From sequence record NZ_CP019224.1: a DNA stretch of 64,000 nt; one strand, written 5' to 3'. This document shows, one piece after another, positions 37,726 to 61,374 of this stretch; the first letter of the stretch is position 1, and the number at the start of each line of letters is the position of its first letter. A program made the position numbers and the translations under genes. Origin of the DNA: a plasmid. The notes under the pieces were generated by a model. It was not told where the DNA came from, did not search any database, and saw only the letters and a list, made by a program, of their open reading frames with translations.

Positions 37726-40050
37726 ATGGCGGAGTTAACAAGTACGGGCGGGGACGAGTTTCCCGCGTGGTGGTCAGAACGCAATAACAAGCAGGCGGCG
37801 CGCCTGCTCAAGGCGGTCAACCGGGGGCCAGTGGGTAAAATTCAGCCGCCGTCACTACCGCATGTCGGCAGTGATCATCCGCGGCCGCAGGGAGCCTTCG
37901 TCCGGTTTCTGTTCCAACCGTATGTGTGGCCGGAAGACTCTGAGACCGCCATGAACGCCGGCGCCGACAAGTTTGCTGATGACTTCAAACTGCACGATGA
38001 CAGCGCGACGACAATCCGCCAGGCGGCGAACGGCGTCTTCGACGGCGGGTCATGGGTGGGCGAGAGCGCGGACGCTGCTCGCGCGGCCCACTTTGAAGCG
38101 GCGTCGATCAAGGATTTCCAGGCGGAGATCGCGCGCGTTGCCTCCGGTTTGATCAGGCGCGGCGCCGACGATGTGGCGAGCACCAAGAAGCACATGTTCG
38201 AGCAGAACACGCAGGCGCATCAAGAGGCCGAGGCCTTCCTAAAAAGCGGCTCGGGGCAGTCGCTGGCGCAGGTAGCGGTGATTCTCGGTGTGCACCGAAC
38301 GACGATCCAGGCCTATTCGACTGAGTTGCAGGGCTACGCCACCCAATACACCGTTCAGTTCACCAACCACTTTAAAGAGGGCGGCCCCGGCGGCCCAAAA
38401 TTCAAACAAGCTGGCAATGGTACAGACAATAAGGACCCGTCGACTGACGGTCCAGGGACGCCAGATCTGGGTCCCCCGAGACAGCCCGGGGGTGGGCGAG
38501 TTCATGCCTCATCAGACGGTCCCAACGACGGTGCAGCACCTCCTGCACCAGGCGGATCGGGACGCGTACACGCGCCCTCGTCGGATGCTCCGTTTGGATC
38601 ACCGCGTCATAACCCGTTGACGTCGTTGATGGGTAGTGGGTTGCCGAGTTTGCCGAGTATGCCTGGCGGGGGATCGGGTGGTGGGCTTCCTATGGGCCCG
38701 TTGCAGGGGTTGATGGGTAGTTTTGGCGGTCTGCCGGGCGGTATGGCCCCGCCCACGGGGCTGGGTGCGCCTGGGCTGCAGGGCTCGCCGATGCCGTCCT
38801 TGGGGATGGACTTCGGGCGAGGTTTAGCGGCGGGCGCGGCGGCGGCAGGGGGTGTTCCGCCGGTGACGTCGGCGCCGATGACGTCGTTGGCGGCGCCGAT
38901 CGAGTCGGCTCCGACGTCGGCTGCGCCAGCGGTGGCTCCTGTGTCTACTGCGCCGGCGGCGGCCGCTTCCGCCCCTGCACCGGCACCGGCGGCGGGTATG
39001 CCGGCAGGAGGCATGACTTCGTACGGTTCCGTTCTTCCTCCGCAGGGCCCGCCGCCGGCCGCTCCGTCGGCGGGCGGCTCGACGCCTGCCGCCCCATCAA
39101 TACCGGCTGAGCCCGGAGGTGGGTCGCCCGGGCCTGGGACCGGGTTGATGCCGGTGGCGGGTCGGCGTGATGTGGTGACGGTGCGCAAGGATGACGCATA
39201 TTCGGATTTGGAAACGGCCAAGGGCCTTGTCGCCGAACTCGCTGGGGCGGCGAAAGTAACTGATCCTGGATTGGATTGGGCTGTGGCCGTTGGCCGTAAC
39301 GCCTCGGGCATGCCGACGTACTGGGTTGCCACGAACGACGGCGCGACCTACATCCCGCCAGTGGTGTTCCTGCGCAAGACGATGCCCATCGCCGGTGGCC
39401 ACGATGCAGATTTTGACGCGCGCTGGTTCGGCTGGGTCAACCCGGCCGATAAAGCGGTGCGGGCGGCCCGGGAGTTCGGGGACACGGTGAGTGCGGTGGC
39501 CACGTCGTGGGCGCTGCCCTCTGAGTTTTTGAGGGAGCACCCGGCGCCGGAAGTGGCCACTGGCGTGAAACCCTCTGACGTGGCGGATAATGCGGCGGCG
39601 GAATTGTTGGCGTCGCGGGCCCATCGGCTGCAGACCGTGGACGCCGCCTTATATGCGGATCTGATGGGGGCCGATGAGTCGGTGGTGCGTGACTACTGCC
39701 GAGAGTTGATCCGCCAGTTGGCATTTGGTATTCCGGGTGAGGCGTTGTCGCCGGTTGCGCAGTCCGTGGCGCACTCACTCGTCGCTGAGCGCTGGCCCAC
39801 AGTCCAGGAGTGGGCGCTGCTCGGCGAGGAACACGAAGACGCTTTGGTTCAGATGGCGTGCCAGCGACCGGGACTGGACGGAATAGAAAACCCTGACCAG
39901 ACGGTCAGCTACACACGAGAATTCATCCGGTGCCGCCAGATAGAGGCTCTCTTGTGCTGGGACCGTTATGGGGGCGACCTACTCAACGTAGTGTATGCAG
40001 CATGGGTGGCCGGTATACGGGCGCCATTGAAGGAACCGGCACTGCGGTGA
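37726..40050 (+). CDS. EspK-like ESX-associated protein: WXG-like N-terminal helical domain, long Pro/Ala/Gly-rich linker, conserved C-terminal domain (774 aa)
   Basis: GGSWVGESADAARAAHFEAAS (W-x-G) and about 350 aa of low complexity. The C-terminal YWVATNDGATYIPPVVFLRK...WFGWVNPADKAV resembles the EspK C-terminal family. Recalled from memory. Confidence 0.45.
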   Translation: MAELTSTGGDEFPAWWSERNNKQAARLLKAVNRGPVGKIQPPSLPHVGSDHPRPQGAFVRFLFQPYVWPEDSETAMNAGADKFADDFKLHDDSATTIRQAANGVFDGGSWVGESADAARAAHFEAASIKDFQAEIARVASGLIRRGADDVASTKKHMFEQNTQAHQEAEAFLKSGSGQSLAQVAVILGVHRTTIQAYSTELQGYATQYTVQFTNHFKEGGPGGPKFKQAGNGTDNKDPSTDGPGTPDLGPPRQPGGGRVHASSDGPNDGAAPPAPGGSGRVHAPSSDAPFGSPRHNPLTSLMGSGLPSLPSMPGGGSGGGLPMGPLQGLMGSFGGLPGGMAPPTGLGAPGLQGSPMPSLGMDFGRGLAAGAAAAGGVPPVTSAPMTSLAAPIESAPTSAAPAVAPVSTAPAAAASAPAPAPAAGMPAGGMTSYGSVLPPQGPPPAAPSAGGSTPAAPSIPAEPGGGSPGPGTGLMPVAGRRDVVTVRKDDAYSDLETAKGLVAELAGAAKVTDPGLDWAVAVGRNASGMPTYWVATNDGATYIPPVVFLRKTMPIAGGHDADFDARWFGWVNPADKAVRAAREFGDTVSAVATSWALPSEFLREHPAPEVATGVKPSDVADNAAAELLASRAHRLQTVDAALYADLMGADESVVRDYCRELIRQLAFGIPGEALSPVAQSVAHSLVAERWPTVQEWALLGEEHEDALVQMACQRPGLDGIENPDQTVSYTREFIRCRQIEALLCWDRYGGDLLNVVYAAWVAGIRAPLKEPALR

Positions 40051-40769
40051 ACGAAAGCTATTCCGCAGCAGCGGATTTAGCGGACACCATAACCATGTTG
40101 ATGACGGAGCCGCGGCCTTTGCCGCGGCAGTTGAAGCGGCTAAAGAAACGTAGCGAGTGGCCGATCGATGAAGCGCTGCTAGTTTTCGAAGCGGCGGTGG
40201 AGTATGTCGCTATCCGCAATAACTATGACGCCGTGGCCGATTGGAAGAGGCGTCAGGCAAAGCTCAACGGTTGGTTAGGGGTTCTTCAACGTGAGCCGGC
40301 ACCGATGTCCGATGAGCAATTTGCTGCCAGCATAGTCGCGTGCGGGAGAGTGGACCCGACCGAGCTGGAAGCAGTTCTGGTCGGTACTAGGCACACGGCG
40401 GCCTTGTTGGACGACATTGCCGAGGTGATAGCCGAGCACCAGCGCGAGCACGAAGAAACTGAGCGGATGAACCGGGCGGTGGCGCGTGGGCGCGAGCGGG
40501 TGAGGATGATCATGAAGCGGTGCGTGGAGCGTCGCGCAGAAATCAGCGCGGCTACAGAAGAACGCCTACAACAAATTTCGCCGGAAGATGCCGCCTCCCA
40601 GAAGTTAGCTATTGAGGCCGCTTATCCGGATCTGATCGTGCTGAGCGAGACAGCGTGTGAACAGATCAACGCGCAGACGCGCCGCGTGTTGGACGCGCAT
40701 CGACGCACGGCAGCGATGCCGATTTGGCAGTTCTGGGAGATGGCCTACAAAGACCTAATCGAGGATTGA
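40047..40769 (+). CDS. hypothetical protein (240 aa)
   Basis: GTG overlaps the upstream stop (GTGA). Sequence VNESYSAAADLADTITMLMTEPRPLPRQLKRLKK.... Confidence 0.4.
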   Translation: MNESYSAAADLADTITMLMTEPRPLPRQLKRLKKRSEWPIDEALLVFEAAVEYVAIRNNYDAVADWKRRQAKLNGWLGVLQREPAPMSDEQFAASIVACGRVDPTELEAVLVGTRHTAALLDDIAEVIAEHQREHEETERMNRAVARGRERVRMIMKRCVERRAEISAATEERLQQISPEDAASQKLAIEAAYPDLIVLSETACEQINAQTRRVLDAHRRTAAMPIWQFWEMAYKDLIED

Positions 40770-41089: not shown

Positions 41090-42740
41090 TCATGCGGCGT
41101 CCCCTTGCGGGGTTGGGGTTTTGGCCTCTCCGCGTCCGGCCCCGCGTGGGCGGGGTCTTACGGATGCTCCGCCGGCACCGGTTGATCCGGTGTCCGCGCC
41201 ATGGCCTGTACCAACCGATTCGGTTGGCCCGGGTACCGATGGGGCCGTGGTCCCGACTGGACCACAACTGGCGTAATCCGGCCAGTCACGGAGATTCAAA
41301 GCAGCATTTCTATCGCGGTCGACCATTTCACCTGTCTGCGGGCAGATGAGGTGCTTGTCGATCCGGCCCTTACCGACCAGGCGGCATGGGGTGCCGTTGG
41401 GGTGGGTGCAGCGGTGGTGGAGCTGGCTTGATGGGAACCAGCGATCCGCCACGATCAGGGTGCTGCCGTGCCGAGTGGTCTTGTAGGCCAGCATCGGCGC
41501 GACCAATCCCATTGCGGCATCAGAAACAGACCGGCGAAACGCCCGCCGGCCCATACTGCGTTTCATCGCGGCCACATCGAGATCTTCGATCACGACCTGG
41601 CCGTAGGTGCCCGCCAACTGCGTGGTGAGTTGGTGGGCTGCTTCCCGCCGCAGATGCACGCACCGACGATCCAATCGGGTCAGCTTGGCTTTCGCTGCCC
41701 GATGACCGTGCGATCCGGGGATACGGCGGGAAAGTTCACGACCAGCCCTGCGGCGGGCGGCAAGTGTCGCCTTGAGCGGGGCCGGATTCTTATACTCGAC
41801 AACGGTTTCGACGCCGGTGGCGGGGTCGATCGTGGCGACGGTGGCCAGCGTGCGCACCCCCAGATCCACCCCGGCGCGCACCGTGGGCTGAGTCGGCGTT
41901 CTTCCCGCGCTCGGGGTGCGCAGCGCATAGCCGACCGACACGAACAACCGGCCCCACCGCTGGGACAGGGTCATGTTCAGGATGCGGGCGCGCCCCGATG
42001 CGAGATGACGTTGCACGCGGCGGGTGTTCTCCTTGGACCGCAGCGCGCTGATGACCGGGACCGTGATGCTATGGCGGTCATCCTCTACCCGCATGGTGCC
42101 GGTGGTGAACCGGACCCGGCCGGGATCGCGTCGCGCCGTGGCGAACCGCGGGAAACCCACCCGCCGACCCTGGCGTCTCCCGTTCTTGCTGGCGCTCCAG
42201 TTGCTCAGTGCCTGGGCCAGATCGGCCAACCCTGCCGAGTAACACTCCTTGCTGTTAGTGGCCCACCACGGCGCCACCTCGTGCTTAGCGAGATTCCACG
42301 CTTTGCGTAGCGCGCCGAGGTCCCAGCCCAACGACTCATGTTCCGGATCAGCCGATTTCGCGTCGAGGTCGGCCTTCACCCGACCCAGACCCCAGTTGAA
42401 CGCCTTGCGGCGAGCACCGAAATGCGACCGCACCAACGCCGCCCGCTCGGGCTCCGCTGGCCATTCCACCTCGAACTTCGCCGCGGTCACCAGCCAACCA
42501 GAGGCCACTTCCGCACCCAGCGAACCGTTGACCGCATAACCGGCGGCGTCCCCGTCGTAGAGCTTGAACAAGACAGACACCGATTCCACCACCGCACGGT
42601 GCGACTCGAAATCCGCGCCCACATCGACATAACGTGACAATGTTTGGCTGCCATCGGGTTTCGGTTTCCCCGGCAACTGCACACCACCGGTCAGCCCGGC
42701 CACCTTCGCCGCCTGACCACAGGTGCGCATCCCGACGATC
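41090..42740 (-). CDS. tnpB: TnpB (OrfB) RNA-guided nuclease-like transposase accessory protein
   Basis: C-terminal zinc ribbon CTHPNGTPCRLVGKGRIDKHLICPQTGEMVDRDRNAALNL and a RuvC-like core. The ORF N-terminus (to 42829) overlaps tnpA and is probably not translated. Confidence 0.7.
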
Positions 42741-42741
42741 A

Positions 42742-43323
42742 TCACGCAGCCCCTGGCTCCCGCTTGGTGGCCGTCACCGCACGCATCGCCCGATTCCGCG
42801 CACCACGACGGCCGTAGAGCCGCGCACACATACTGGTCAGGACCTCGATCATGTCGCGCACCAGATCATCGGTGGTCTCACCCGGATCAGCGACCACGAT
42901 CCGGCGGCCCTGCGCCGACAACGCCGCTTCCAGGTGTTCCACCCCGAAACGCGCCAGCCGATCCCGATGCTCCACAACGATCACCCTCGCATCGGGGTCC
43001 GACAAGATGCGGCGCAGCTTGGGCCGCTTCCCATTCAGCCCGGAACCGACCTCGCACACCACCTGGCCCACCTCAAGATCACGCTCCGTGGCCCACGCGG
43101 TCACCCGCGCCACCTGACGGTCCAGATCCGAGCGCTGATCATGGCTGGACACCCGCGCATACACCACCACCGTCGCCGCCGCACCCGATACCGAGGCTGC
43201 CGCCTTGACCAGAATCAGCCGCCCAACCCGCTCCGCGGGCACCGGCAACGTCCCCTCCCGAAACCACCGATAAGCGGTATGCCGGTTCACACCAACCGAT
43301 TCCGCCCAATCCGCCAGATTCAC
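42742..43323 (-). CDS. tnpA: IS607-family TnpA: MerR-like HTH plus serine recombinase (resolvase) domain
   Basis: MNLADWAESVGVNRHTAYRWFREG as the HTH. VVYARVSSHDQRSDLDRQ as the catalytic Ser region. Confidence 0.75.
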   Translation of the reverse strand: MNLADWAESVGVNRHTAYRWFREGTLPVPAERVGRLILVKAAASVSGAAATVVVYARVSSHDQRSDLDRQVARVTAWATERDLEVGQVVCEVGSGLNGKRPKLRRILSDPDARVIVVEHRDRLARFGVEHLEAALSAQGRRIVVADPGETTDDLVRDMIEVLTSMCARLYGRRGARNRAMRAVTATKREPGAA

Positions 43324-43394: not shown

Positions 43395-44825
43395 GGGCAG
43401 GGACTGTCGCAGTAAGGGTGTAAACGGCCTGATCGGCCCCGGTGTGTCGGGGCCGGAAAGGTCGCATGATGACCGAAACTGTCGTGGCTGTGGAGCCATC
43501 GCAGAATCTCGATGTTGAGGCCGCTGCGGCGGCCATTGAAGTCCCGGATAGCCGTGAGGTCGACGAGCTCGAGGTCGCCCGGGAGCTGGTACGCCAGGCC
43601 CGCGAGGCCGGCGTGGCGCTGACCGGCCCGGGCGGCCTGCTCAAGGCGATGACCAAGACGGTCATCGAGACCGCCCTGGACGAGGAATTATCCGAGCACC
43701 TGGGCTATGACCGCCACGATCCGGCCGGGTACGGCTCGGGCAACTCCCGCAACGGAACCAGGGCCAAGACCGTGCTCACCGATGCGTGCGGGCAGATCGA
43801 GATCGACGTCCCGCGCGACCGCGCCGGCAGCTTCGAACCCGAGATCGTCAAGAAGCGTCAACGCCGCTTGACCGATGTCGATGAGGTGGTGTTGTCGCTG
43901 TATGCCCGCGGGCTGACCACCGGTGAGATCAGCGCCCATTTCGCCCACATCTACGGCGCGGCAGTCTCCAAGGACACGATCAGTCGGATCACCGACCGCG
44001 TGGTCGAGGAGATGACCGCCTGGCACACCCGCCCGCTGGAACGCGTGTACGCCGCGGTGTTCATCGACGCCCTGCACGTCAAGATCCGCGACGGCCAGGT
44101 CGGCCCCAGGCCCATCTACGCCGCGATCGGGGTGGACCTGGCCGGGCATCGTGACGTGCTGGGCATGTGGGCCGGCGAGGGCGATGGCGAGTCGGCCAAA
44201 TACTGGCTGGCGGTGCTCACCGAGCTGAAGAACCGCGGGGTGGCCGACATCTTCTTCCTGGTCTGCGATGGGCTCAAAGGCTTACCGCAATCGGTGGGCG
44301 CGGTGTTCCCCGACACTGTGGTCCAGACGTGTGTCATCCATTTGATCCGTGGGACGTTCCGCTATGCCGGGCGCCAGCACCGCGACGCCATTGCCAAGGC
44401 GTTGCGGCCGATCTATACCGCGGTCAACGCTGAGGCTGCAGCGGCAGCGCTGGACGCGTTCGAGGCCGAGTGGGGTAATCGCTATCCGGCAGCAATTCGA
44501 TTGTGGCGCAACGCGTGGAGTGAGTTCATTCCGTTCCTGGACTACGACACTGAGATAAGGAAGGTGATCTGTTCGACCAATGCTATTGAATCGTTGAACG
44601 CCCGCTACCGCCGCGCCGTCCGGGCCCGCGGTCATTTTCCGACCGAGCAGGCAGCGCTGAAGTGCCTATACTTGGTCACCCGGTCGCTGGACCCGACCGG
44701 GACCGGACAGAAGCGATGGACCATGCGCTGGAAACCAGCCCTGAACGCCTTCGCGATCACCTTCGCCGACCGCATGCCCGGCAGCGAAACCACTTAACCG
44801 AAGATGCCGCTTACACCGTTAATCT
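43395..44825 (+). mobile_element. IS256-family insertion sequence (IS1081-like)
   Basis: Mutator-type transposase 43442-44797. Imperfect terminal inverted repeats around ggtgtaaacgg (left) and ccgcttacaccgtta (right). Confidence 0.7.
43442..44797 (+). CDS. IS256-family (mutator-type) transposase
   Basis: LSEHLGYDRHDPAGYGSGNSRNGTRAKTV...RAGSFEPEIVKKRQRRL...IFFLVCDGLKGL with DDE catalytic residues. Confidence 0.8.
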   Translation: MCRGRKGRMMTETVVAVEPSQNLDVEAAAAAIEVPDSREVDELEVARELVRQAREAGVALTGPGGLLKAMTKTVIETALDEELSEHLGYDRHDPAGYGSGNSRNGTRAKTVLTDACGQIEIDVPRDRAGSFEPEIVKKRQRRLTDVDEVVLSLYARGLTTGEISAHFAHIYGAAVSKDTISRITDRVVEEMTAWHTRPLERVYAAVFIDALHVKIRDGQVGPRPIYAAIGVDLAGHRDVLGMWAGEGDGESAKYWLAVLTELKNRGVADIFFLVCDGLKGLPQSVGAVFPDTVVQTCVIHLIRGTFRYAGRQHRDAIAKALRPIYTAVNAEAAAAALDAFEAEWGNRYPAAIRLWRNAWSEFIPFLDYDTEIRKVICSTNAIESLNARYRRAVRARGHFPTEQAALKCLYLVTRSLDPTGTGQKRWTMRWKPALNAFAITFADRMPGSETT

Positions 44826-45078: not shown

Positions 45079-45501
45079 TTAGGGCGCTGGCCAGTAGCCG
45101 ATGACGCCGTTGAATTCGAGGTCGGTTTGGGTGAAGTCGTTGCCGATGGCGATGAGGGGTTCGTGTGCGAGTTTGGCGGTGGCGTAGGCCATGGTGTCGC
45201 CGTAGTTGAGGGCGGCGGGGTGGCGGCCTTTTCCGTAGTGGAGGTAGGCGCGGTGGGCGGCGATCGCGTGTTCGAGGGTGAAGGGCTGGAAGCCGAGGTT
45301 GATTTCGGATCGTAGGCGGTCGAAGACGGTGCGCGCGGTCGCGCCGTGTCGGTTGGTGAGAACGATGAGGCATTCGGCTGCGTTGGCCGTGGACATGACG
45401 GGGCTGGGATCGGCGGCGATGGCGGCCGCGATCTGTTCGGTGTAGGGGTCCTCGCCCTGGATGAGGGCGACGATCGCGGAAGAGTCGATGATCAGGATCA
45501 A
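45079..45501 (-). CDS. vapC: VapC (PIN-domain) toxin
   Basis: [20 protein letters not shown]...[10 protein letters not shown]. Start overlaps the vapB stop (ATGA). Confidence 0.8.
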
Positions 45502-45761: not shown

Positions 45762-45862
45762 GGGTACATGGTACCCCGTGGACGGTGTCCGGTACTTCGC
45801 GGGTGATCGCTTTGCCGGCGTGGGTGTGGCCCGGCTGGGTAGTGCCGGGTTAATTTTGTGGG

Positions 45863-46837
45863 GTGAGTGTTGCGGCGTTTGTGGCTGGGGTTGATCGGTT
45901 GCTGAGCCGTGCGCATGAGTTGTTTCCGGCCGGGGGTGCGGGCGGGGCACTGCCGAGCTCGGGTGATGTTGCGGTGCCGGGCTCTCCGGAGGGTGGCAGT
46001 GGTTTGCGGGCCGGGGTGGTACGCGCGGCCGGTTCTTATCAGCAGGCTCGCAGTGGGGCGGCGGGCCTGGATGGGGAGCTGGCGCAAAGCGCCGAGGAAG
46101 GCGCGCAGATCGGGGCCCAGGGCCGGGAGGCGTCGGGGTTGATTCGCGATCAGGCCCGTACCAGCGCGGCCGCGCTGTTGCCGATGGCTCGCACGCCAGC
46201 GGGTGCGCACCTGCTGATGGCGACGATGGATCAACATTTGGCGGCGATGCAGGACCAGCTGCAGACCACCAAAACCCAGTACCAGGCCATCTCGGCGGGA
46301 TTGCGCCAAACCGCCGCCGGCTATCACACCTTGACTGACGGCGCGAAGGACTCACCGCCGGCGGCGCCGCTGGACTCATCGGATAAGTGGAAGCCAGGCG
46401 ACAAGCATCATGAGCCTTACGGGGCTGGCGTGGGCGGGATGGGTCCGCCGAACTATCCCCATTCGCCGCCGTGGGTGGACATTTACGACAGGACGAAAGA
46501 TCCGGATCAGGTTCCGCACTATTTCGTCAGATCTGACGAGATTCCCGGCTACCAGGTCCTTCCGCCGGGGCGCTATGGTCCCGCGACGGTTTACGACGAG
46601 CACGGCAACCCTGATCCTTATGTCCAGTTGGGCCCGAATTCTGGTGTGTGGGTGCCGCAGTCGGCTTTCCCGGGGGCGAAGGTCTATCCGCCGGGTGGGG
46701 GTGAGTTGCCGCCGTATGGGTGGAGTGAGTATGTGCCGGGCTCGGGGATTTTCTTGTGGCACGGGGATTTGATGCCGGAGCCGTATAAGCCGTATGGCCC
46801 GTCCGGGCCGCCGACGATTCCGCAGGGCGGCCGCTAA
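45863..46837 (+). CDS. modular ESX-adjacent protein, paralogue 1: conserved helical N-domain plus Tyr/Pro/Gly-rich C-domain of unknown function
   Basis: N-domain [25 protein letters not shown]...[42 protein letters not shown]... is shared with 46901 and 48090. C-terminal [33 protein letters not shown].... Confidence 0.6.
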
Positions 46838-46900
46838 ACCGGCCCGAACTGGCGGTGCGTGGCTGTGGCCGGGGGGATTTGCTCGGGTTAATTTTGGTGG

Positions 46901-48004
46901 GTGAGTGTTGCGGCGTTCGTGGCTGGGGTTGATCGGCTGCTGAGTCGCGGTCATGAGTTGTTCCCGGCCGGGGGGCCGGGTGGTGGGCAGGTGTTCGCCG
47001 CTGGGGGTCGGGTGCCGGTGCCGGAGGCCCCGGATGGCCACAGCGGTTTGACGGGTGGGGCTCGGGCCGCCGGTGGGGCGTATCAGCAGGCGCAGGCCGG
47101 TGCGGATGGTCTTGACGGGGACTCGGGGCAGGCGGTAGCCCAAGGTGGTGAGGTTGGTGCGCAGGGCCGCGCCGGGTCGGGGTTGATTCGGGATCAGGCC
47201 CGCGCGGTGGGTGCTGCGACCGCGGGGATGGGTCGTTCGCCGGCGGGCGCGAAGTTGATCATGGCGGCCATGGATGATCATTTGGCCGCGATGCAGCGTC
47301 AGTTGGATCAGACCACGGCCGAAAACCGGCTGTTGGCGATGCGGATGCGTCAGCTGGCGGCGGGCTATCGCGGTCTGGGTGCAGGTGGGATGGGCGGCGG
47401 TATGCCCCTGTCCGGGCTGGGCGGCTTGATGTCGGGCGGCGGCGGTGGCGGCGGCCTGAGCGGGTTAAGCGGCTTGGGGAGCGTGCCTGGAGGGTGGAGC
47501 CGTTTGGTGGGATCGGTCCGCGGGGGCCGGGGGCCGCGGAGCGAGGAAGCGGCGCCGCGCGGCGATGTGGGGACTGCGCTGGGCGGGTTGACGCAGGATT
47601 CGTCTCCGCGTGAAGTGGCTGCAGCGATCATCCATGAGGCTCGCCGGCGCGGCTACTCGCCGCACCAGACGATCGCGATCTTGTCTACGGCGATGCAAGA
47701 AAGCGGGTTGCGTCCTCGGGCTGTGAGTCCGAATGGGTTGTGGAGAAGCATTTTCCAGCAAGACTCGGGTTATCCGGGCCGCAATAATCCCAACACGGCG
47801 ATTTCGGGATTTTTCGATCGGCTGGCCCACCATGGCGGTCCGTCGTCACCGGACATTTGGAAGTCGATCTTCTGGTTACAGCAGCGCCCGGGCGATTCGT
47901 CGGCTGAGGCGGCAGTGGCGCACGGACGTAGGGGCTATTTGAACGAGATCCAGAGTCAGTTGCCCAGGGCGACGGCGTTGTATCGCAGCATCGCCGGAGT
48001 TTGA
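46901..48004 (+). CDS. modular ESX-adjacent protein, paralogue 2: N-domain plus SLT-like lytic transglycosylase C-domain
   Basis: C-terminal AILSTAMQESGLRPRAVSPNGLWRSIFQQDSGY matches the SLT family-1 signature (ES catalytic Glu ... AVSxxGAxGLMQ-like). Confidence 0.6.
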   Translation: MSVAAFVAGVDRLLSRGHELFPAGGPGGGQVFAAGGRVPVPEAPDGHSGLTGGARAAGGAYQQAQAGADGLDGDSGQAVAQGGEVGAQGRAGSGLIRDQARAVGAATAGMGRSPAGAKLIMAAMDDHLAAMQRQLDQTTAENRLLAMRMRQLAAGYRGLGAGGMGGGMPLSGLGGLMSGGGGGGGLSGLSGLGSVPGGWSRLVGSVRGGRGPRSEEAAPRGDVGTALGGLTQDSSPREVAAAIIHEARRRGYSPHQTIAILSTAMQESGLRPRAVSPNGLWRSIFQQDSGYPGRNNPNTAISGFFDRLAHHGGPSSPDIWKSIFWLQQRPGDSSAEAAVAHGRRGYLNEIQSQLPRATALYRSIAGV

Positions 48005-48089
48005 CCACCACCACCACAACGATGTACGAGGATGCTGCGAATTTTGCGTGGCTGTGGCCGGGGGGATTTGCTCGGGTTAATTTTGGTGG

Positions 48090-49130
48090 GTGAGTGTTGC
48101 GGCGTTCGTGGCTGGGGTTGATCGGCTGCTGAGTCGCGGTCATGAGTTGTTCCCGGCCGGGGGGCCGGGTGGTGGGCAGGTGTTCGCCGCTGGGGGTCGG
48201 GTGCCGGTGCCGGAGGCCCCGGATGGCGACAGCGGTTTGACGGGTGGGGCTCGGGCCGCCGGTGGGGCGTATCAGCAGGCGCAGGCCGGTGCGGATGGTC
48301 TTGACGGGGACTCGGGGCAGGCGGTGGCCCAAGGTGGTGAGGTTGGTGCGCAGGGCCGCGCCGGGTCGGGGTTGATTCGGGATCAGGCCCGCGCGGTGGG
48401 TGCTGCGACCGCGGGGATGGGTCGTTCGCCGGCGGGGGCGAAGTTGATTATGGCGGCCATGGATGATCATTTGGCCGCGATGCAGCGTCAGTTGGATCAG
48501 ACCACGGCCGAAAACCGGCTGTTGGCGATGCGGATGCGTCAGCTGGCGGCGGGCTATCGCGGTCTGGGTGCAGGTGGGATGGGCGGCGGTATGCCCCTGT
48601 CCGGGCTGGGCGGCTTGATGTCGGGCGGCGGCGGTGGCGGCGGCCTGAGCGGGTTGAGCGGCTTGGCGTCGGGGATACCGGCGTCACTGATGGGCAGCCT
48701 GAGTCGCGGCGGCGGTGAGAACGGGGGGCCGGGTGAGCAGTCGGGCGCTTCGCTTCTGGGCGGCGGTGGCAGTGGGACGGCGCTGCGGGCGGTGCAGTTC
48801 GCCGAGACCAAGTTGGGTGATCCGTACGTGTGGGGCGCGACAGGGCCGCGCCAATACGACTGCTCCGGGTTGGTGATGGACGCCTACCGGCACGCGGGGG
48901 TTCAGTTGCCGCGCATGACCTACGACATGATTCACAAAGGTATGACGGTGGATCGCGCTGAGGTGCGGGCCGGTGATCTGGTGTTTTCCAATTTCTCGAG
49001 CAGAGGGCCGGAGCATGTGCAGATGGCGGTGTCCTCGACGAAGGTCATTGAGGCGCCCACCCCGGGGGGCCACGTCCAGTATTCGGGCTTCCCGCGTGGG
49101 CATGTTGTCGTGAAAAGAATTGTCGGATAA
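48090..49130 (+). CDS. modular ESX-adjacent protein, paralogue 3: N-domain plus NlpC/P60 peptidase C-domain
   Basis: C-terminal YVWGATGPRQYDCSGLVMDAYRHAGVQLPR...GDLVFSNFSSRGPEHVQMAV with the NlpC/P60 Cys-His catalytic motifs. Confidence 0.7.
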   Translation: MSVAAFVAGVDRLLSRGHELFPAGGPGGGQVFAAGGRVPVPEAPDGDSGLTGGARAAGGAYQQAQAGADGLDGDSGQAVAQGGEVGAQGRAGSGLIRDQARAVGAATAGMGRSPAGAKLIMAAMDDHLAAMQRQLDQTTAENRLLAMRMRQLAAGYRGLGAGGMGGGMPLSGLGGLMSGGGGGGGLSGLSGLASGIPASLMGSLSRGGGENGGPGEQSGASLLGGGGSGTALRAVQFAETKLGDPYVWGATGPRQYDCSGLVMDAYRHAGVQLPRMTYDMIHKGMTVDRAEVRAGDLVFSNFSSRGPEHVQMAVSSTKVIEAPTPGGHVQYSGFPRGHVVVKRIVG

Positions 49131-49147: not shown

Positions 49148-50689
49148 TTGACGGTGGTTGAGCCGGGAGTGGATAAGGACGACGAGTCGCGCTGGCGCGG
49201 GCGCGGTCTGGGGCTTTCGACGCGGGTACAGGTGTCGGGGCACATGTTTTTCGCCCGTCGCGCGGTGGCGGCGATGACTCGGCGGCGGGTGCGGATGGAG
49301 GCCGAGCCGGGCCGGCGCCAGTCGATGGCGATGTTGGCGGGTGTGACGCTGACCGCTGTGCTGTGTCTGGGGGCGTTGTTCTGGTCGTTTGTGCGCCCGG
49401 CCGGTTCGGCGGGGCAGGCGCGGATTGTGGCCGATCAGGATTCGGGGGCGCTGTATGTGCGGGTGGGCGAGAAGCTGTATCCGGCGTTGAATTTGTCCTC
49501 GGCGCGGTTGATCGCCGGGGAGGCGGCCAGCCCGGTTCGGGTGCGCCGCAGCGAGATTGACGCAGCGCCGCGCGGGCCGCTGGTCGGTATTGCCGGCGCC
49601 CCGCAGGATATGGTGGCGACGTCGCCGGGTCGCTCGTCGTGGTTGGTGTGTGATGAGATCACCAAGGCGTTCGGGGCGGCTGCGCCTGAGCCGGTGACGG
49701 TGACCGTCATCGACGGCCAGCCCGAGCTGGGTCCACGCCGCCACGTGCTGGGCCCTGATGATGCGATGGTGCGCCGCTATGGGGATGCGGTGTGGTTGAT
49801 CCGCGATGGGCGGCGCTCGTTGATCAATCAGGGTGCTCGGGCGGTGCTGTTGGCGTTGGGGCTGGGCGAGGATGCGGTGTTGGGGTCGCGCCCGATGAGC
49901 CGGGCCTTATTCGATGCGATCCCGGTGGGCCCGGAGTTGTCGGTGCCGGTGATCCCGAATGCGGGCTCGCCGGCACGGTTCGCGGGGGCGCCGGGCCCGG
50001 TGGGGACGGTGGTATCGACTCCGCAGGTGGGTGGGCAGACCGCGTATTCGGTGGTGCTCACCGATGGCGTGCAGCCGGTGTCGCCGGTGGTGGCTCAGGT
50101 GCTGCAAAATGCCGGGCCGGCCGGTGCGGTGATCCCGGTGGTGGCTGGCCCGGTGTTGGCGAAGTTGCCGGTGGTGCAAACCCTGGACTTGTCGGCGTTC
50201 CCGGCTACCCCGCCGCGGGTGATCGATAGCCAGGTCAACGCCGCGGCGTGCTGGCACTGGGAGAAGGTGAGCGGTGAGGCGCTGGCTAGCACGTCGGTCA
50301 TCGCCGGCCCGAGCATCCCGGTGGCCGAGGGCCAAGTGGACAAAGTGGTGGACTTGGTGAAAGCCCCGGGGCCACAGATGCAGGCCGACCGCGTGTATCT
50401 GGGCCCTGAGTACGCCAATTACGTGGTGTCCACCGGTAATTCGCCGTCAGCGGCCACGGTGGAGTCGTTGTGGTGGATATCCGAATCAGGGGTGCGGTTC
50501 GGGGTGCCGCGCCAGGAGGACACGATGAACGCTTTGGGTTTGAAGAAGCATTCCCCGAGCCCGGCGCCGTGGCTGGCGCTGCGGCTGCTGGCCGCCGGGC
50601 CGGCATTGTCGCGCTCTGATGCGCTGGTGCGTCACAACACGCTGCCTGTCGATGCCAACCCGGCCGAACTGGAGGTCCCGAAGTCATGA
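49148..50689 (+). CDS. eccB: ESX conserved component EccB
   Basis: GLSTRVQVSGHMFFARRAVAAMTRRRVRME and a TM segment. Immediately upstream of eccC, with stop overlapping the eccC ATG. Confidence 0.85.
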   Translation: MTVVEPGVDKDDESRWRGRGLGLSTRVQVSGHMFFARRAVAAMTRRRVRMEAEPGRRQSMAMLAGVTLTAVLCLGALFWSFVRPAGSAGQARIVADQDSGALYVRVGEKLYPALNLSSARLIAGEAASPVRVRRSEIDAAPRGPLVGIAGAPQDMVATSPGRSSWLVCDEITKAFGAAAPEPVTVTVIDGQPELGPRRHVLGPDDAMVRRYGDAVWLIRDGRRSLINQGARAVLLALGLGEDAVLGSRPMSRALFDAIPVGPELSVPVIPNAGSPARFAGAPGPVGTVVSTPQVGGQTAYSVVLTDGVQPVSPVVAQVLQNAGPAGAVIPVVAGPVLAKLPVVQTLDLSAFPATPPRVIDSQVNAAACWHWEKVSGEALASTSVIAGPSIPVAEGQVDKVVDLVKAPGPQMQADRVYLGPEYANYVVSTGNSPSAATVESLWWISESGVRFGVPRQEDTMNALGLKKHSPSPAPWLALRLLAAGPALSRSDALVRHNTLPVDANPAELEVPKS

Positions 50690-53600
50690 AGATTGGGTTC
50701 GCGCGCAAGCAAACTGCGCAGGCGCCGCCGTTTAAGCCTGAAACCCTTGACCTGCCGACTCCACTGAAAGTGCCGCCGCCACAAAGCAAACCGCTGTGGT
50801 CGGTGGCGTTGATCATCGGCCTGCTTGCGCTGTTCGGCGGAATGATGTGGATCAGCTTCGCCAGTGGTGCGCGCTCGTTTACCGGCGCGGGGTCATTTTT
50901 CCCGCTCCTGATGGTGGGCGGGCTGGTTGCGATGCTGTTCGGTGGCCGCGGCGGGTCGCAGGAGATGTCGCGCTCGAAGCTCGACGCGCTGCGGGCCCGG
51001 TTTTGCATGGTCATGGACGAGCTGCGAGGAACCACCTCAGAGTTGGCGGACCGGCTCGATCAGAATCACCGCTGGTATCACCCCGCACCGGGCACCCTGG
51101 AAGCGGCCGTGGGCAGTATGCGGATGTGGGAGCGCAAGCCCAACGGGTCTGATACATGGTTCGGGGTGGCCCGGGTCGGGGTGGGCATGACGGATCTGAT
51201 GGAATCCAATGCCGCCGTGTTCAACGAGCCGCAGGACGCGCCGACCGATATCGAGCTCGAACCGGTGACCGGCAAGGTCCTCCAAGAGTTCATGCAATAC
51301 CAGACGGTGGCCTACGGCACGCCGAAACTGGTGTCGCTGATGGTGGAGCCCGGCTATGAGCTACGCGGCCCGCGTGAGCGGGTGCTGGGCCTGATGCGCG
51401 CGATCCTGTGCGAATTGGTGTTTTTCCACGGCCCCGATCATCTGCGGCTGGTGGTGGTGACTTCTGATGCGGCCGAGTGGGATTGGGTGAAGTGGCTACC
51501 ACACGCCGGTGATCCGAAGCTCATTGACGGTGCGGGCCCGGTGCGCATGGTCTATGGGTCGGTCGCTGAGTTCCTTGACGCGCAAACTGAGGCAATGTCG
51601 CTGTCCACCCGCGGGGACTTCCGCTCGCGCCTGGGCGCGTCGAAGGACCCTATTGAGCCGTTGCCGCACACGGTGGTCGTGTGCGACACCGAAGCGGGAT
51701 GGGAGCGTCTCGGAAGCTCCGAAGGCGTCGCTGGGTTGACATTTTTCGACGTGCGCGGCCTAGGCCGCGTTCCGGCGTGCCGCGACGCGCGCCGGCGAGT
51801 GTTGTACATCGGTGAGAACGCTGTCATCTCGGCGGTGCCGCGCGACCCGATGACATGGGATCCGCAGGGGAACGATCCCCAGTTTTTCGCCTACGCCGAT
51901 CAGATGAGCCGCGATGAGGCCGAGACGTTCGCCGAGCGCATGGCGCGCTTCCGGCTCGCCGAGGCCTATGAGGCGATCGAAGTTGATTCCGGCAAGCAGG
52001 TGATGGCCCGAGACATCCTGTCGTACTACGGGATTGAGGACGCCGCCAATATTGATTTCGACAAGTTGTGGGGCCCGCGTAGTGACATCAACTCCCTGCA
52101 GCGGTTGAAGGTGCCACTGGGTAACCGGATGGACAACAATGAGCTGTTTTTCGTCGACATCAAGGAGGACTCGGAAGGGGGCCAGGGCCCGCACGGGGTG
52201 ATGGCCGGCACGACTGGCTCGGGCAAGACGACGATGCTGCGCGCCTTCATTGAGTCTCTGATGTTGGGGCACCCGCCGCAAAACCTGCAGTTCATGTTGG
52301 CCGACCTCAAGGGTGGCTCGGGTGTTCGGCCCTTTGCCGGGGTGCCTCACGTTTCGCAGATCATCACCGACCTCGAAGAGGACCAGGGTTTGATGACCCG
52401 TTTCATCGACGCGCTGGATGGCGAGATCGCGCGGCGCAAAGCCTTATGCGATGTGCCTGGCGCTGATGATGTGGGGGTATACAACAAGATCCGTGCCGAT
52501 CAGCTCGCAGCGGGGGCTGCTGAGGTGTTGCCGCCGCTGCCGGTACTGGTGGTGGTCATTGACGAGTTCGCCGAACTGTTTAAGTTGATGGGTCAAGAGA
52601 TTCAGGACTCGTTGTATCAGATCGCCCGCCAAGGCCGCGCGTATTGGATTCATCTGCTGATGGCCAGCCAGCAGATCGAAACTCGCGCTGAGAAGCTGCT
52701 AGAAAACGTGGGGTACCGGATGGCCCTGCAGACCAATACGACACAGTCAGCCACGGCGATCGGTGTGCCGAATGCGGTGAACCTCAAGGGTTCTGGGCAG
52801 TGCTATTTCTTGCAGGGCAGCCCCGCGAACGGCACGCTGACGAAATTTCAGGGCGAGTTCTTGTGGCGTGAGTACCGCAAGCCTGGCACGGAGGACCTCG
52901 ACGACGCGCCGCAAGTGAGCGCGGCGTCAGTGAGTTATTTTGCGCCGCAACTGTTCTCCACGGACTTCACACCGTTGCCGCCGCCTGATGAGCTCGACGA
53001 GTCGCCAGCTGTGGATGGGGAAGTGGCTGATGTCGACGAGGTGACCGACGCGGGCGATAGCGAGGACGCCGAGGAGCGCAATGCGTTGATGCGCCCACAG
53101 GTGGGGCGCATCATCATCGACCAGCTGCGCCGGATTGACTTTGAGCCTTACCGGTTGTGGAAGCCGCCGCTGGATGCGCCGTGGAGCATCGAGAAACTGG
53201 TGAACACCTATCTGGGGCGGCCCTGGGACAGCGACTATGCGCGCACCCCGAACCTGGTGTTCCCTGTGGGGCTGGTGGACCGGCCATTCAAGCATGACCA
53301 GCATCCGCTGACCATTGACGTGTCGGGCCCGGGCGGCAATGTGGTGATCGTGGGTGCTCAGGGCTCGGGCAAAACGACTGCGCTGCAAGACCTGATCTGC
53401 GCGGCGGCCATGACGCACACCCCTGAGCAGGTGCAGTTTTACTGCCTGGCGTTTTCGTCGGCGGCCCTCAGTAGTGTGTCGGGGCTACCGCATGTGGGTG
53501 GTGTGTCGATGTCGCTTGATAGTGACGGTGTGCGCCGCACCGTGGCGGAGATCGCGGCGTTGCTCGCCTCGCGCAAGCGCAGCTTCGAGGCGACCGGCGT

Positions 53601-54912
53601 GATGTCGATGGAGGTGTTTCGCCGCCGCAAGGCTGGGCGTGAGCCCGGGGCTGTGCCTGAGGACGGTTACGGCGATGTGTTCTTGGTGATCGACAACTAT
53701 GCGGCGATGGTTAGCGAATATGAGGCGCTCGTCGAAGACAAGGTGAACAGGATCATCAAAGAGGGGCCCACGTTCGGGATTCACGTGGTCGCCGCGGTGA
53801 CCAAGAACACCGATCTGCAGGTGACGGTGCGGGGTAACTTCGGGTCTCGGGTGGAGCTTCGTCTGGCCGACTTCAACGAAGCGACGCTGGTGGCTAAGGC
53901 GAGACTGGCCACGGCTGTGCCGGCGCGGCCAGGGCGCGGCATGATTGGGCAAAATTACGAACGCACCGGCGTAGACCCCGTGGGGTTGCACACGTTGATG
54001 GCGCGCCCGGCGCTGGAGTCCACCGCCGCGGAGGTGTTCGATTCACGCAGTGTCGCCGAGGCTGTCAGCCGCCAGGCCGGTAGGTTCAATCCTGCACGTA
54101 AGGTGCGCAGGCTGCCAGGGCGGGTTTCGCCGGCCGAGCTGGCGGCGACAGCCGCCACCGATGATCGCACCCCCACGTCGATCGTGTGGGCGCTCGACGA
54201 GACCGAACGGCCGGTGTTTTTGGCCAGTCAGCATCTGATCATCGCCGGGCAACCCAAGTGTGGGCGCACGACGGCGTGTGCAACATTGATGCGCGAGATT
54301 CGCAGGGTTTACGCCCCGGGCGCTGACGGCGCTACGGGGCCGGGGCTGGAAGAAACGGCCGACCGCCCCGCGGCCCAGGTGTGGCTCATTGATCCGCGCC
54401 GCCAGCTACTCAACGTGCTGGATAAGTCCTACGTGCAGCGTTTCGCCTCGACGCCGGACTCGGTCAAAGCGCGCATGGGCGAGCTGGCCGCGGTCCTTGC
54501 GCCGCGGCTGCCCAGCGACGATTTATCGGTCGATGACATCGGCCGGCGCCACTGGCAGGGTCCGGAAATCTTTTTGATCATCGACGATTCTGAGCGGTTG
54601 CCGGTCGGCTTCGACTCACCTCTGGGGGTGATCGAACGGTTCGTGCAGGCCGGCGACGACGTCGGGTTGCACATCATCTACACCCGCCAGTTCGCGGCGT
54701 TCATGGCGGGCCTGGGGGCCGACCCCGTGTTCAGGATGCTCAAGCAGGCCAGGGAGCCGGAGCTGATCATGGATTCCGACCCCGATCAAGGATTCGTGAA
54801 GGGCAAATGGAAAGGCCATTGGATGCCCAAGGGCCGCGGATTCTTGCTGAATACCGCCGAATCGGGCGAATCGGGAATTTATGTCCAAGTCGCTGACGCC
54901 GGCCTCGGATAG
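50686..54912 (+). CDS. eccC: ESX conserved component EccC: FtsK/SpoIIIE-type ATPase, single fused polypeptide with three ATPase domains (1408 aa)
   Basis: Two N-terminal TM helices. Walker A motifs GTTGSGKTT, GAQGSGKTT, and GQPKCGRTT. Confidence 0.9.
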   Translation: MKIGFARKQTAQAPPFKPETLDLPTPLKVPPPQSKPLWSVALIIGLLALFGGMMWISFASGARSFTGAGSFFPLLMVGGLVAMLFGGRGGSQEMSRSKLDALRARFCMVMDELRGTTSELADRLDQNHRWYHPAPGTLEAAVGSMRMWERKPNGSDTWFGVARVGVGMTDLMESNAAVFNEPQDAPTDIELEPVTGKVLQEFMQYQTVAYGTPKLVSLMVEPGYELRGPRERVLGLMRAILCELVFFHGPDHLRLVVVTSDAAEWDWVKWLPHAGDPKLIDGAGPVRMVYGSVAEFLDAQTEAMSLSTRGDFRSRLGASKDPIEPLPHTVVVCDTEAGWERLGSSEGVAGLTFFDVRGLGRVPACRDARRRVLYIGENAVISAVPRDPMTWDPQGNDPQFFAYADQMSRDEAETFAERMARFRLAEAYEAIEVDSGKQVMARDILSYYGIEDAANIDFDKLWGPRSDINSLQRLKVPLGNRMDNNELFFVDIKEDSEGGQGPHGVMAGTTGSGKTTMLRAFIESLMLGHPPQNLQFMLADLKGGSGVRPFAGVPHVSQIITDLEEDQGLMTRFIDALDGEIARRKALCDVPGADDVGVYNKIRADQLAAGAAEVLPPLPVLVVVIDEFAELFKLMGQEIQDSLYQIARQGRAYWIHLLMASQQIETRAEKLLENVGYRMALQTNTTQSATAIGVPNAVNLKGSGQCYFLQGSPANGTLTKFQGEFLWREYRKPGTEDLDDAPQVSAASVSYFAPQLFSTDFTPLPPPDELDESPAVDGEVADVDEVTDAGDSEDAEERNALMRPQVGRIIIDQLRRIDFEPYRLWKPPLDAPWSIEKLVNTYLGRPWDSDYARTPNLVFPVGLVDRPFKHDQHPLTIDVSGPGGNVVIVGAQGSGKTTALQDLICAAAMTHTPEQVQFYCLAFSSAALSSVSGLPHVGGVSMSLDSDGVRRTVAEIAALLASRKRSFEATGVMSMEVFRRRKAGREPGAVPEDGYGDVFLVIDNYAAMVSEYEALVEDKVNRIIKEGPTFGIHVVAAVTKNTDLQVTVRGNFGSRVELRLADFNEATLVAKARLATAVPARPGRGMIGQNYERTGVDPVGLHTLMARPALESTAAEVFDSRSVAEAVSRQAGRFNPARKVRRLPGRVSPAELAATAATDDRTPTSIVWALDETERPVFLASQHLIIAGQPKCGRTTACATLMREIRRVYAPGADGATGPGLEETADRPAAQVWLIDPRRQLLNVLDKSYVQRFASTPDSVKARMGELAAVLAPRLPSDDLSVDDIGRRHWQGPEIFLIIDDSERLPVGFDSPLGVIERFVQAGDDVGLHIIYTRQFAAFMAGLGADPVFRMLKQAREPELIMDSDPDQGFVKGKWKGHWMPKGRGFLLNTAESGESGIYVQVADAGLG

Positions 54913-55005
54913 ATCTGCGATGGGCCGCGCGTAAGCCCGCGGGCGTCGATACACTTTTGTCATCAGACCGGTCAATGTCCGGTCGGCTCTTTACGGGAGG
55001 GTTCC

Positions 55006-55302: not shown

Positions 55303-55331
55303 GTCTAGCCCGCGGGTTAGCGCCCACAGCC

Positions 55332-56486: not shown

Positions 56487-56599
56487 CGCCGAATTGGTGA
56501 CATCATGTGCACGGAAAAATTCGTTCAAATAGCTTGCGCCGGCCGTTGCCCGGCGTTAGATCGGGCCAATAGACTGGCAACACAGCAACGCTGAAATAA

Positions 56600-56926
<327 letters not shown>

Positions 56927-56970
56927 CCGCCAGGTCCCTACCCACTTTTACGCCAAGGAGACGTACAACC

Positions 56971-57255: not shown

Positions 57256-57333
57256 CCCGCACTGTTCCAGCCAACGACGTGGCGGCACCGGATTCGGTGC
57301 CGCCACGTCAGCGTTTGAGCAAGGAAACCTGCT

Positions 57334-61358: not shown

Positions 61359-61374
61359 CGGGGGTGGTTGTTCG

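Follow-up and report, generated by a model that had tools for sequence, protein, structure and literature searches.

The 64,000-nucleotide (nt) stretch of plasmid sequence record NZ_CP019224.1 analyzed here (hereafter the window) carries, directly upstream of eccB in the type VII secretion system (T7SS) locus ESX-P1, three genes in tandem, P1, P2 and P3. Our analysis revealed that their products are modular proteins: (i) they share an N-terminal domain, the head, which appears to be a divergent DUF4226 domain; (ii) their C-terminal domains, the tails, differ, those of P2 and P3 being predicted to cleave the glycan strand and the stem peptide of peptidoglycan, respectively; (iii) these two activities seem to be conserved in two slots before eccB, which are filled by non-homologous domains between plasmids; and (iv) the 5′ block of the two eccB-proximal genes undergoes concerted evolution. 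On balance, P1–P3 are probably peptidoglycan remodelers targeted to ESX-P1 for conjugation or for apparatus assembly, a reading that we hold with modest confidence.

The three open reading frames (ORFs) have exactly the limits given in the original prediction, an earlier reading of the nucleotide sequence (Table 1). It attributed to all of them a helical N-domain of about 190 amino acids (aa). The motifs quoted in it are present, but the head common to P1, P2 and P3 is a helical hairpin of only about 157–159 aa followed by a Gly-rich linker; the ~190 aa correspond to the stretch (head and most of the linker) over which P2 and P3 are identical in protein. P1 is 43–44% identical to P2 and P3 over the whole alignment and about 54% identical over the last 110 residues of the head. 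In the AlphaFold model of P2, a short helix (aa 3–20) and a disordered Gly/Pro stretch precede two long helices (aa 50–107 and 114–162) forming the hairpin (predicted local distance difference test, pLDDT, 78–87), and the linker (aa 167–223) is disordered. A helix-turn-helix hairpin of this kind is expected of Type VII (ESX) substrates. A profile of 11 head sequences aligned with DUF4226-containing proteins (PF10774) at 97.6% probability in hhalign (E-value 3e-12, 137 columns), and at 96.6% (6.7e-10) when the DUF4226 protein encoded elsewhere in the window, P4, was left out. Furthermore, some of the proteins retrieved by the head profile match DUF4226 at or near the cut-off, as P0270 does with 23.1 bits. 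Canonical DUF4226 relatives possess a WxG motif and show a faint similarity to EspA/EspE; the invariant Leu of the head (SGLxxG), N-terminal to the first long helix, occupies in the alignment the position of the Trp in their GWHG. These profile comparisons argue for the head being a divergent member of this family. The original prediction had also noticed a related head in P4, which indeed exceeds the Pfam threshold for DUF4226 (Table 1). P4 continues with a Gly/Asp-rich linker of ~200 aa and a C-terminal domain without recognized fold, and is 30% identical to P1 over the whole alignment; its tail has no match in the PDB, and the only similarity found is a faint YaeF-like match (E 0.11). A full-text literature search on DUF4226 retrieved one unrelated paper and no described function for the family. 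Some database records label DUF4226 proteins “BssS” or “type VII secretion target”; BssS is presumably the same family as DUF4226.

The tail of P3 matches PF00877 with 71.4 bits (cut-off 23) over aa 243–332. Its residues C258 (in DCSG), H309 (EHV) and E321 (IEA) align with the catalytic positions of RipA, and the His-Glu spacing is 12 residues in both. The best PDB match is 7cfl (2.8e-16); RipA, RipC and Tn916-like conjugative hydrolases (4hpe, 9ubf) were also retrieved, and the NCBIfam models RipC, RipB and RipA match P3 below their cut-offs (70.7 against 425 bits for RipC). The original assignment of the P3 tail as an NlpC/P60 (C40) domain is therefore confirmed, with predicted endopeptidase activity on the stem peptide. 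The tail of P2 had been described as an SLT-like lytic transglycosylase, of which the lysozyme-like fold and the catalytic Glu were borne out while membership of the SLT family was not. It is a helical domain of ~140 aa that is widespread in mycobacteria (111 matches) and also found behind canonical DUF4226 heads. Searched against the PDB, the profile of this family has two fungal muramidases as best matches (E 0.0014). The Glu267-Ser268 pair, located at the end of the first core helix, is invariant in all 17 P2-tail sequences and aligns with the “ES” of 8b2h and 8b2e. No match to Pfam SLT (PF01464) was found for P2, and among the 17 family members there were only two weak ones (best E 0.025); the nearest model, Phage_lysozyme2, is matched by 15 of the 17, all below threshold (15–17 bits against a cut-off of 28.2). 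Hence, the P2 tail is predicted to be a lysozyme-fold glycan cleaver, either a muramidase or a lytic transglycosylase. Catalytic residues, whose absence would have spoken against the original prediction, are thus present in the tails of both proteins.

The Tyr/Pro-rich tail of P1 had been described as an unknown domain, and it has no match in the PDB; direct sequence searches of P1 and P2 gave chance matches only. An internal repeat in this tail is only weakly supported (z 3.2; observed score reached by 4 of 500 shuffles) and we do not claim it. The P1 tail is also found behind EspC-type heads (PF10824, T7SS_ESX_EspC, 34–37 bits) and behind canonical DUF4226 heads (60–67 bits), and heads of T7SS-substrate type thus appear to be interchangeable carriers of this cargo. 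One fusion of an EspC-type head with a P1-type tail (L038, 6001–6828) is encoded on a 228-kb contig of Mycobacterium sp. TKK-01-0059, with no ESX genes within the 12.8 kb viewed, in an island that includes Fic, PemK, PIN, GmrSD and a faint DUF87 (VirB4/HerA-like) ATPase. Judging from this island, the P1-type tail seems to move with mobile elements also where no ESX locus is adjacent. We would guess at a binding role for this tail, toward the envelope or the partner cell.

Head-bearing genes are located directly 5′ of eccB, on the same strand, in 16 of the 16 loci that include eccB. Six arrangements of tails, read toward eccB, were found: (i) P1 tail, lysozyme, NlpC/P60 (window, p20KCMC460_01, Mycobacterium interjectum and Mycobacterium arosiense); (ii) P1 tail, SLT, NlpC/P60 (pS2a of Mycobacterium avium, Mycobacterium chimaera, Mycobacterium nebraskense, Mycobacterium scrofulaceum and a metagenome-assembled genome, MAG); (iii) P1 tail, NlpC/P60 (pRAW, pMyong1 and Mycobacterium sp. 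E1214); (iv) LAS-type peptidase only (Mycobacterium gordonae); (v) P1 tail, then SLT and LAS (Mycobacterium kyorinense); and (vi) SLT, head only, LAS (a MAG). The eccB-adjacent gene always encodes a stem-peptide peptidase, either NlpC/P60 or LAS-type, and this slot is never empty. The gene before it, absent in some loci, encodes a glycan cleaver when present, either lysozyme-like or classical SLT, the latter in the middle gene of other plasmids (pS2a, P0184; Pfam SLT, 21.7–22.6 bits against a cut-off of 21.3). No similarity is detectable between the P2 tail of the window and the tail of the pS2a middle gene. The slots therefore seem to be conserved in function and not in descent of the domain, and this replacement of unrelated domains with retention of the activity argues for a required muramidase and endopeptidase pair, as in CwlT.

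From the near-identity of about 617 bp between the second and third genes, the original prediction had deduced a recent duplication with a swap of the C-terminal domain. The near-identity is real: the two repeat copies are identical, without gaps, at 617 of 622 positions (mismatches at 47039, 47137, 47248, 47260 and 47467), far beyond chance, over a block reaching from 45 nt 5′ of each start codon into the Gly-rich linker, where it stops after GGLSGLSGL. However, a single recent duplication was rejected as the origin of this near-identity, since other loci, with other tails, display it as well. Compared within a locus, the 5′ blocks of the two genes nearest to eccB are identical at 572 of 577 positions in the window, 577/577 in p20KCMC460_01, 581/582 in pS2a and 577/578 in M. 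chimaera; identity reaches 98.9% over 617 nt in M. interjectum, 98.5% in a MAG (L010) and 99.1% in M. kyorinense (SLT versus LAS). In total, seven of the eight other loci show 98.5–100% identity, the exception being a MAG (L030, 87%), whereas the same heads are only 73–87% identical in protein between plasmids. This near-identity does not depend on the attached tails (lysozyme-like/NlpC, SLT/NlpC or SLT/LAS), and in each locus the homogenized block runs from 43–60 nt 5′ of the start codon into the linker. This pattern of near-identity within loci and divergence of heads between plasmids indicates an ongoing homogenization of the head block by repeated gene conversion between tandem paralogs, with replacement of tails slot by slot. 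P1 shares the upstream ~45 nt and the head with P2 and P3 at about 77–80% DNA identity.

Away from eccB, the same plasmids or genomes have two head-bearing genes in a convergent pair (L013 and L014, 3777–8663; L017, 3759–8657), whose tails are the unknown domain of 240 aa and a Cys-containing one of 50 aa. Since the heads of this pair are just 75% identical in DNA (measured in L013), homogenization appears specific to the tandem eccB-proximal pair.

Direct repeats of ~620 nt also allow deletion and exchange of the intervening tail. Compared with p20KCMC460_01, to which it is otherwise almost identical and with which it has protein accessions in common, pMyong1 is missing precisely one stretch, the unique part of a single repeat unit. 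A recent insertion of P2 in the lineage of the window was considered and is disfavored: the three genes stand in the same order in M. interjectum and M. arosiense, whose P2 tails are 92% identical. As this order is shared, a deletion in pMyong1 by recombination between direct repeats is more parsimonious. Other genes are found at this site in several loci: a VapBC pair between the SLT and NlpC genes of pS2a (L004, 8308–8948), a ParD/ParE-like pair between the head-identical genes of M. interjectum (L007, 9259–9803) and TnpB-like and transposase-like ORFs in M. kyorinense (L028, 9052–11263), the last two recognized from translations only. It is tempting to speculate that a toxin-antitoxin pair placed between ~600-nt direct repeats protects the intervening tail from deletion.

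The homogenized block includes the upstream element of ~45 nt that precedes each of the three genes (Table 1). It consists of a GC-rich hairpin (45827–45852 for P1), then TTAATTTTG, which ends 6 nt 5′ of the GTG start codon; this element recurs at 46869–46886 and following for P2, and at 48058–48075 and following for P3. A consensus scan labels this element terminator-like (hairpin and T-run), and a sigma-70 promoter scan found no sites. The TAATTT of the element may be a mycobacterial −10 box (TANNNT), which it fits at the distance of a leaderless transcript.

The head is not restricted to these loci. A first homology search with it retrieved mostly truncated or frameshifted metagenomic proteins, and the range of tails became apparent with an exhaustive profile search, which yielded 205 cluster representatives, essentially all mycobacterial. 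Many of them are head-only proteins (~160 aa) and about 50 carry a tail of at least 60 aa. At least 10 tail types were found. Besides NlpC/P60 and the lysozyme fold of P2, they comprise classical SLT (22.6 bits, cut-off 21.3), a LAS-type metallopeptidase with homology to PDB 9flh (E 5.9e-15), Abhydrolase_8, an unknown domain of 240 aa, two small domains containing Cys, two more kinds that look lysozyme-like on inspection by eye only and Pro-rich tails that finish in a hydrophobic stretch resembling a Gly-zipper. Tails of the last type are found in P0180, P0189, P0194, P0186, P0241 and P0191, of which the first three end in Cys-Lys; such tails look membrane-active rather than wall-hydrolytic. 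The modular organization originally proposed, a fixed head with swappable and mostly cell-wall-active tails, therefore holds and extends to the whole family, which displays the fixed N-terminus and variable C-terminus of polymorphic toxin systems.

If P1–P3 are ESX-P1-targeted remodelers, the DUF4226-type head would hand each protein to the ESX-P1 machine or dock it there. The P2 tail would cut the glycan strand through its lysozyme fold and Glu267, and the P3 tail the peptide stem through Cys258, His309 and Glu321. A local opening of the wall by the two enzymes would allow ESX-P1 and the type IV secretion system (T4SS)-like conjugation apparatus to assemble or a mating channel to form. We infer here the ESX-P1-dependent export, the enzymatic activity and the role in conjugation. 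The substrate of these tails is extracytoplasmic and no signal-peptide-like or transmembrane segment was found in P1–P3 (Kyte-Doolittle 19-residue maximum 1.16); a dedicated export route is therefore needed. ESX-P1 is the candidate route because of the fixed place of the genes in its operon, the hairpin head from an ESX-linked family and the interchangeability of this head with EspC-type heads. Like Type VII substrates, P1–P3 are encoded beside ESX genes (17 nt 5′ of eccB, same strand, with the same location in the 16 loci), and like conjugation-associated hydrolases, P2 and P3 have a glycan-cleaving or a peptidase domain with an intact active site. The plasmid itself is of a conjugative kind, as judged from its relatives, the prototype pRAW being conjugative by experiment. 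The conjugation of pRAW needs both eccC-P1 and a virB4 homologue; the authors of this work reported that its T4SS genes include no homologue of VirB1, and proposed the “NLP/P60” genes for that role, linking T4SS and T7SS (PMC4173767). The maintenance of muramidase-type and endopeptidase slots through non-orthologous replacement is what this VirB1-substitute hypothesis predicts, and it favors the remodeler reading.

The original prediction had left the choice between ESX-linked remodelers and secreted antibacterial effectors; the former are the better fit, given the conserved slots and the lack of room for immunity genes. In the latter case, the head would be a T7SS trafficking domain and the tails toxins that ESX-P1 delivers into or onto competing mycobacteria, in analogy with the firmicute LXG toxins or the T6SS effectors Tae and Tge. 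The association of one head with so many tail types, including four or five classes of peptidoglycan hydrolases, Gly-zipper-like tails and Abhydrolase_8, the presence of two to five head-bearing gene copies per plasmid and a head-coding repeat with the recombination potential typical of polymorphic toxin loci are all in agreement with such effectors. However, a check for adjacent immunity-like genes revealed no immunity-sized ORF beside any of the three genes, which are separated by 63 nt (P1–P2), 85 nt (P2–P3) and 17 nt (stop codon of P3 to eccB), and the inserts found between genes in other loci are cytoplasmic toxin-antitoxin pairs (VapBC, ParDE) or insertion sequence (IS) elements. Furthermore, the two activities of the eccB-proximal slots are retained from plasmid to plasmid, with no free diversification, and no orphan tail cassettes were seen downstream. 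We therefore regard effectors as unlikely to be the right explanation for P1–P3.

In RipA, RipC, EnvC and PcsB, a helical hairpin tethers and gates a hydrolase on the extracytoplasmic part of a membrane machine. The head could likewise be a regulatory or docking coiled coil that gates the hydrolases, for example on EccB or on the T4SS-like channel, with export by another route. The layout of P3 (coiled-coil hairpin, flexible linker and NlpC/P60 domain) is that of RipC and RipA, as reflected by its PDB and NCBIfam matches, and identical, homogenized heads on two enzymes would fit a competition for one docking site. However, RipA and RipC have classical signal sequences whereas P1–P3 have neither signal nor transmembrane segment and so need an export route, and the same cargo is found on EspC-type heads, which are T7SS substrates. 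As a replacement for an export role, docking seems slightly more improbable still than effectors, yet it is compatible with the ESX-P1-targeted remodelers since the head could do both jobs. That the genes are decaying or selfish remnants, derived from mobile elements or phage lysins and without role in ESX-P1 or conjugation, is very improbable: although such an origin would fit the likeness of the tails to domains of phage lysins and tail lysozymes, the flanking or interruption of the cassette by toxin-antitoxin modules and IS elements and the lack of a middle gene in pRAW and pMyong1, the ORFs are intact, their catalytic residues are conserved across species at 65–92% identity, their place and orientation are fixed in every locus that includes eccB and the endopeptidase slot is never empty.

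Several points weigh against the remodeler reading that we prefer. P1–P3 heads gave no match to Pfam DUF4226 at E ≤ 0.1. The turn of the hairpin is G-R-S-P-A-G and lacks the WxG motif. No YxxxD/E follows the hairpin; an invariant Tyr stands at the end of helix 2 (AAGY-R/Q/H-x-L), with Gly at +4 in P2 and P3, and Thr at +4 and Asp at +5 in P1. No relationship was detectable between the head and the EspC-type heads that bear the P1 tail (hhalign 0.3%), so that the two head types are better viewed as analogous carriers than as homologues at this level of detection. The role given to the P1 tail is a guess, and the wider head family carries toxin-looking tails (Gly-zipper, alpha/beta hydrolase). 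Chromosomal ESX systems are not known to depend on dedicated hydrolases of such a type. The secretion, activity and conjugation phenotype attributed to P1–P3 derive from sequence and genomic context, and the mutants of the pRAW study concern eccC and virB4 only (PMC4173767).

A more far-reaching scheme can be proposed, although we would call it possible rather than probable. The DUF4226-type head would be an unrecognized export domain of ESX systems (T7SSa) for folded enzymes, by which ESX-P1 delivers a muramidase/endopeptidase pair and an envelope-binding protein to breach the wall of the donor or of the recipient. Gene conversion would keep the heads of the two enzymes identical, for equal recognition or co-secretion of both, and the wider family would be the mycobacterial counterpart of LXG proteins, including some true toxins (those with Gly-zipper, alpha/beta hydrolase and 240-aa tails).

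Table 1. Position in the 64-kb window of the cassette genes, of their parts and of associated features (aa, amino acids).
Feature	Residues	Position	Strand	Remarks
P4		21450-22970	+	Canonical DUF4226 head (Pfam 3.7e-8, 34.1 bits, cut-off 23.5)
VapC		45079-45501	-	Pfam PIN 3.6e-15
VapB		45498 to ~45785	-	Annotated in a 95%-identical plasmid
Upstream element of P1		45818-45862	+	Direct-repeat family D2
P1 gene		45863-46837	+	324 aa, GTG start
P1 head	1-157	45863-46333		Followed by a short linker
P1 tail	~160-324	46340-46837	+	Tyr/Pro-rich, beta-rich
Repeat copy A		46856-47477	+	45 nt 5′ of P2, head and most of linker
Upstream element of P2		46856-46900	+	Direct-repeat family D2
P2 gene		46901-48004	+	367 aa, GTG start
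P2 head	1-159	46901-47377		
P2 tail (predicted lysozyme fold)	226-367	47576-48004	+	Gly-rich linker to ~aa 225
P2 putative catalytic Glu	267	47699-47701	+	Followed by Ser268
Repeat copy B		48045-48666	+	45 nt 5′ of P3, head and most of linker
Upstream element of P3		48045-48089	+	Direct-repeat family D2
P3 gene		48090-49130	+	346 aa, GTG start
P3 head	1-159	48090-48566		Followed by a Gly-rich linker
P3 tail (NlpC/P60)	~221-346	48750-49130	+	Pfam NLPC_P60 (PF00877), 7e-20
P3 putative catalytic Cys	258	48861-48863	+	
P3 putative catalytic His	309	49014-49016	+	
P3 putative catalytic Glu	321	49050-49052	+	
eccB of ESX-P1		49148-50689	+	Pfam T7SS_ESX1_EccB 2e-143
Remaining ESX-P1 genes		50686-63075	+	eccC, PE, PPE, two WXG100 genes, espG, MinD/ParA-like gene, eccD, mycP; Pfam match for each gene

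The window belongs to a mycobacterial plasmid of the pRAW/pMyong1 type and is 93–95% identical to p20KCMC460_01 and pMyong1. The cassette region is 95% identical in p20KCMC460_01 (Mycobacterium sp.), with all three genes present, 94.8% identical in pMyong1 and one M. avium plasmid, with two of the three genes only, and 76–79% identical in pRAW and in plasmids of M. avium and M. chimaera. The ESX-P1 locus is complete in the window and its gene order is that of pRAW and p20KCMC460_01. The T4SS-like locus and the relaxase are not contained in the 64-kb window itself; pMyong1 and p20KCMC460_01 were typed as MOBF/MOBP. A full cassette with eccB was also found on a chromosome-sized scaffold (4.99 Mb) of M. 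interjectum (L007, 954977–971459). An ESX-P-type locus with head-bearing hydrolases may thus be chromosomally integrated, a point of relevance to the proposal that chromosomal ESX loci originated from plasmids.

The VapBC pair flanking P1 is outside the cassette system, yet such pairs are recurrent at this site. Just 5′ of the cassette, the window carries a TnpB/IS605-type gene (41090–42829, − strand; Pfam OrfB_IS605 1.4e-26) and a transposase-like ORF of 451 aa (43442–44797, + strand), IS256-like by look only; the closest plasmids cover only 72% of positions 20000–44900. P4 lies in a second cluster (21450–25754) that resembles ESX substrates and also includes a YbaB-like ORF of 113 aa (22971–23312), a 613-aa protein combining PE and PPE (23575–25416) and another 113-aa ORF with a faint DUF2710 match. 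A 774-aa protein without Pfam domain and an overlapping 240-aa ORF are encoded at 37726–40769. The former may match, judged by size and position only, a 769-aa protein of M. avium pS2a (L004, 3235–5544) labeled “WXG100 family type VII secretion target” in RefSeq, for which Pfam WXG100_2 gives just E 0.062; the 774-aa protein may be another large ESX-P1 cargo. Finally, the − strand encodes at 28017–29924 a 635-aa protein with eight “helicase-associated” (HA, PF03457) repeats (E 3e-154), which corresponds to two ORFs in a related plasmid.

In other conjugation systems, the wall is opened by proteins such as VirB1, CwlT, TraG and PrgK. As for CwlT (ICEBs1), TraG (pIP501), PrgK (pCF10) and VirB1, the glycan-cleaving and peptidase domains of the cassette are encoded with the conjugation machine. 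In that class, a single polypeptide, which has a signal or a membrane anchor at its N-terminus, usually carries both activities; by contrast, the cassette devotes to each activity one gene with its own T7SS-type head, has no signal sequence and belongs to a T7SS rather than to a T4SS-like operon. With RipA and RipC of Mycobacterium tuberculosis, P3 shares the catalytic domain, the Cys-His-Glu spacing and the preceding coiled coil and linker. However, RipA and RipC are division enzymes exported by Sec/Tat and regulated by RpfB or FtsEX, whereas P3 is far below their curated cut-offs and has a different head and genomic context. The LXG polymorphic toxins of the firmicute T7SSb, with their Lap partners, show no demonstrated sequence relationship with the cassette, which lacks immunity genes, has wall hydrolases as tails in conserved slots and belongs to a mycobacterial ESX system (T7SSa) on a conjugative plasmid. 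Within DUF4226 (PF10774), P4 is above threshold while P1–P3 are related at profile level, with Leu in place of the Trp of WxG.

That ESX-P1 starts with two “NLP/P60” genes, which may have a VirB1-like role, is already published. Both pRAW genes were so named in the 2014 and 2016 papers (PMC4173767, PMC4779608), and the NLP/p60 gene was compared with CwlT by Dumas et al. in 2016 (PMC4779608). These genes, mmarE11p_00580 and mmarE11p_00590 (Ummels et al.), are the orthologues of P1 and P3, with tails 71–83% identical and the same position at the start of ESX-P1. However, only one of them is NlpC/P60; the other shares the head alone and has a tail of unrecognized kind, and the third gene of the window, P2, has no counterpart in pRAW. 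We did not find described in the literature: (i) that only one pRAW gene is NlpC/P60, the unifying DUF4226-type head and its use as a carrier of many tails; (ii) the variable middle slot, the replacement of NlpC/P60 by LAS and the functionally conserved slots; and (iii) the concerted evolution of the head block and the swap of the P1 tail between DUF4226 and EspC heads. The cassette nevertheless joins known kinds, the wall hydrolases associated with conjugation and the modular type VII effectors, and is not a new category.

For conjugation, pRAW-type plasmids need a type VII system besides the T4SS-like one. If the head-bearing hydrolases are substrates of ESX-P1, this type VII system would gain a concrete job, the opening of peptidoglycan for the transfer channel. 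DUF4226 would then be a new targeting domain for the export of folded enzymes by ESX systems, offering a handle for reporters and a search key for further mycobacterial effectors, possibly including genes located beside ESX-2. The homogenized 5′ block itself illustrates neatly, in a natural setting, how concerted evolution acts as a device for module exchange in a secretion operon.

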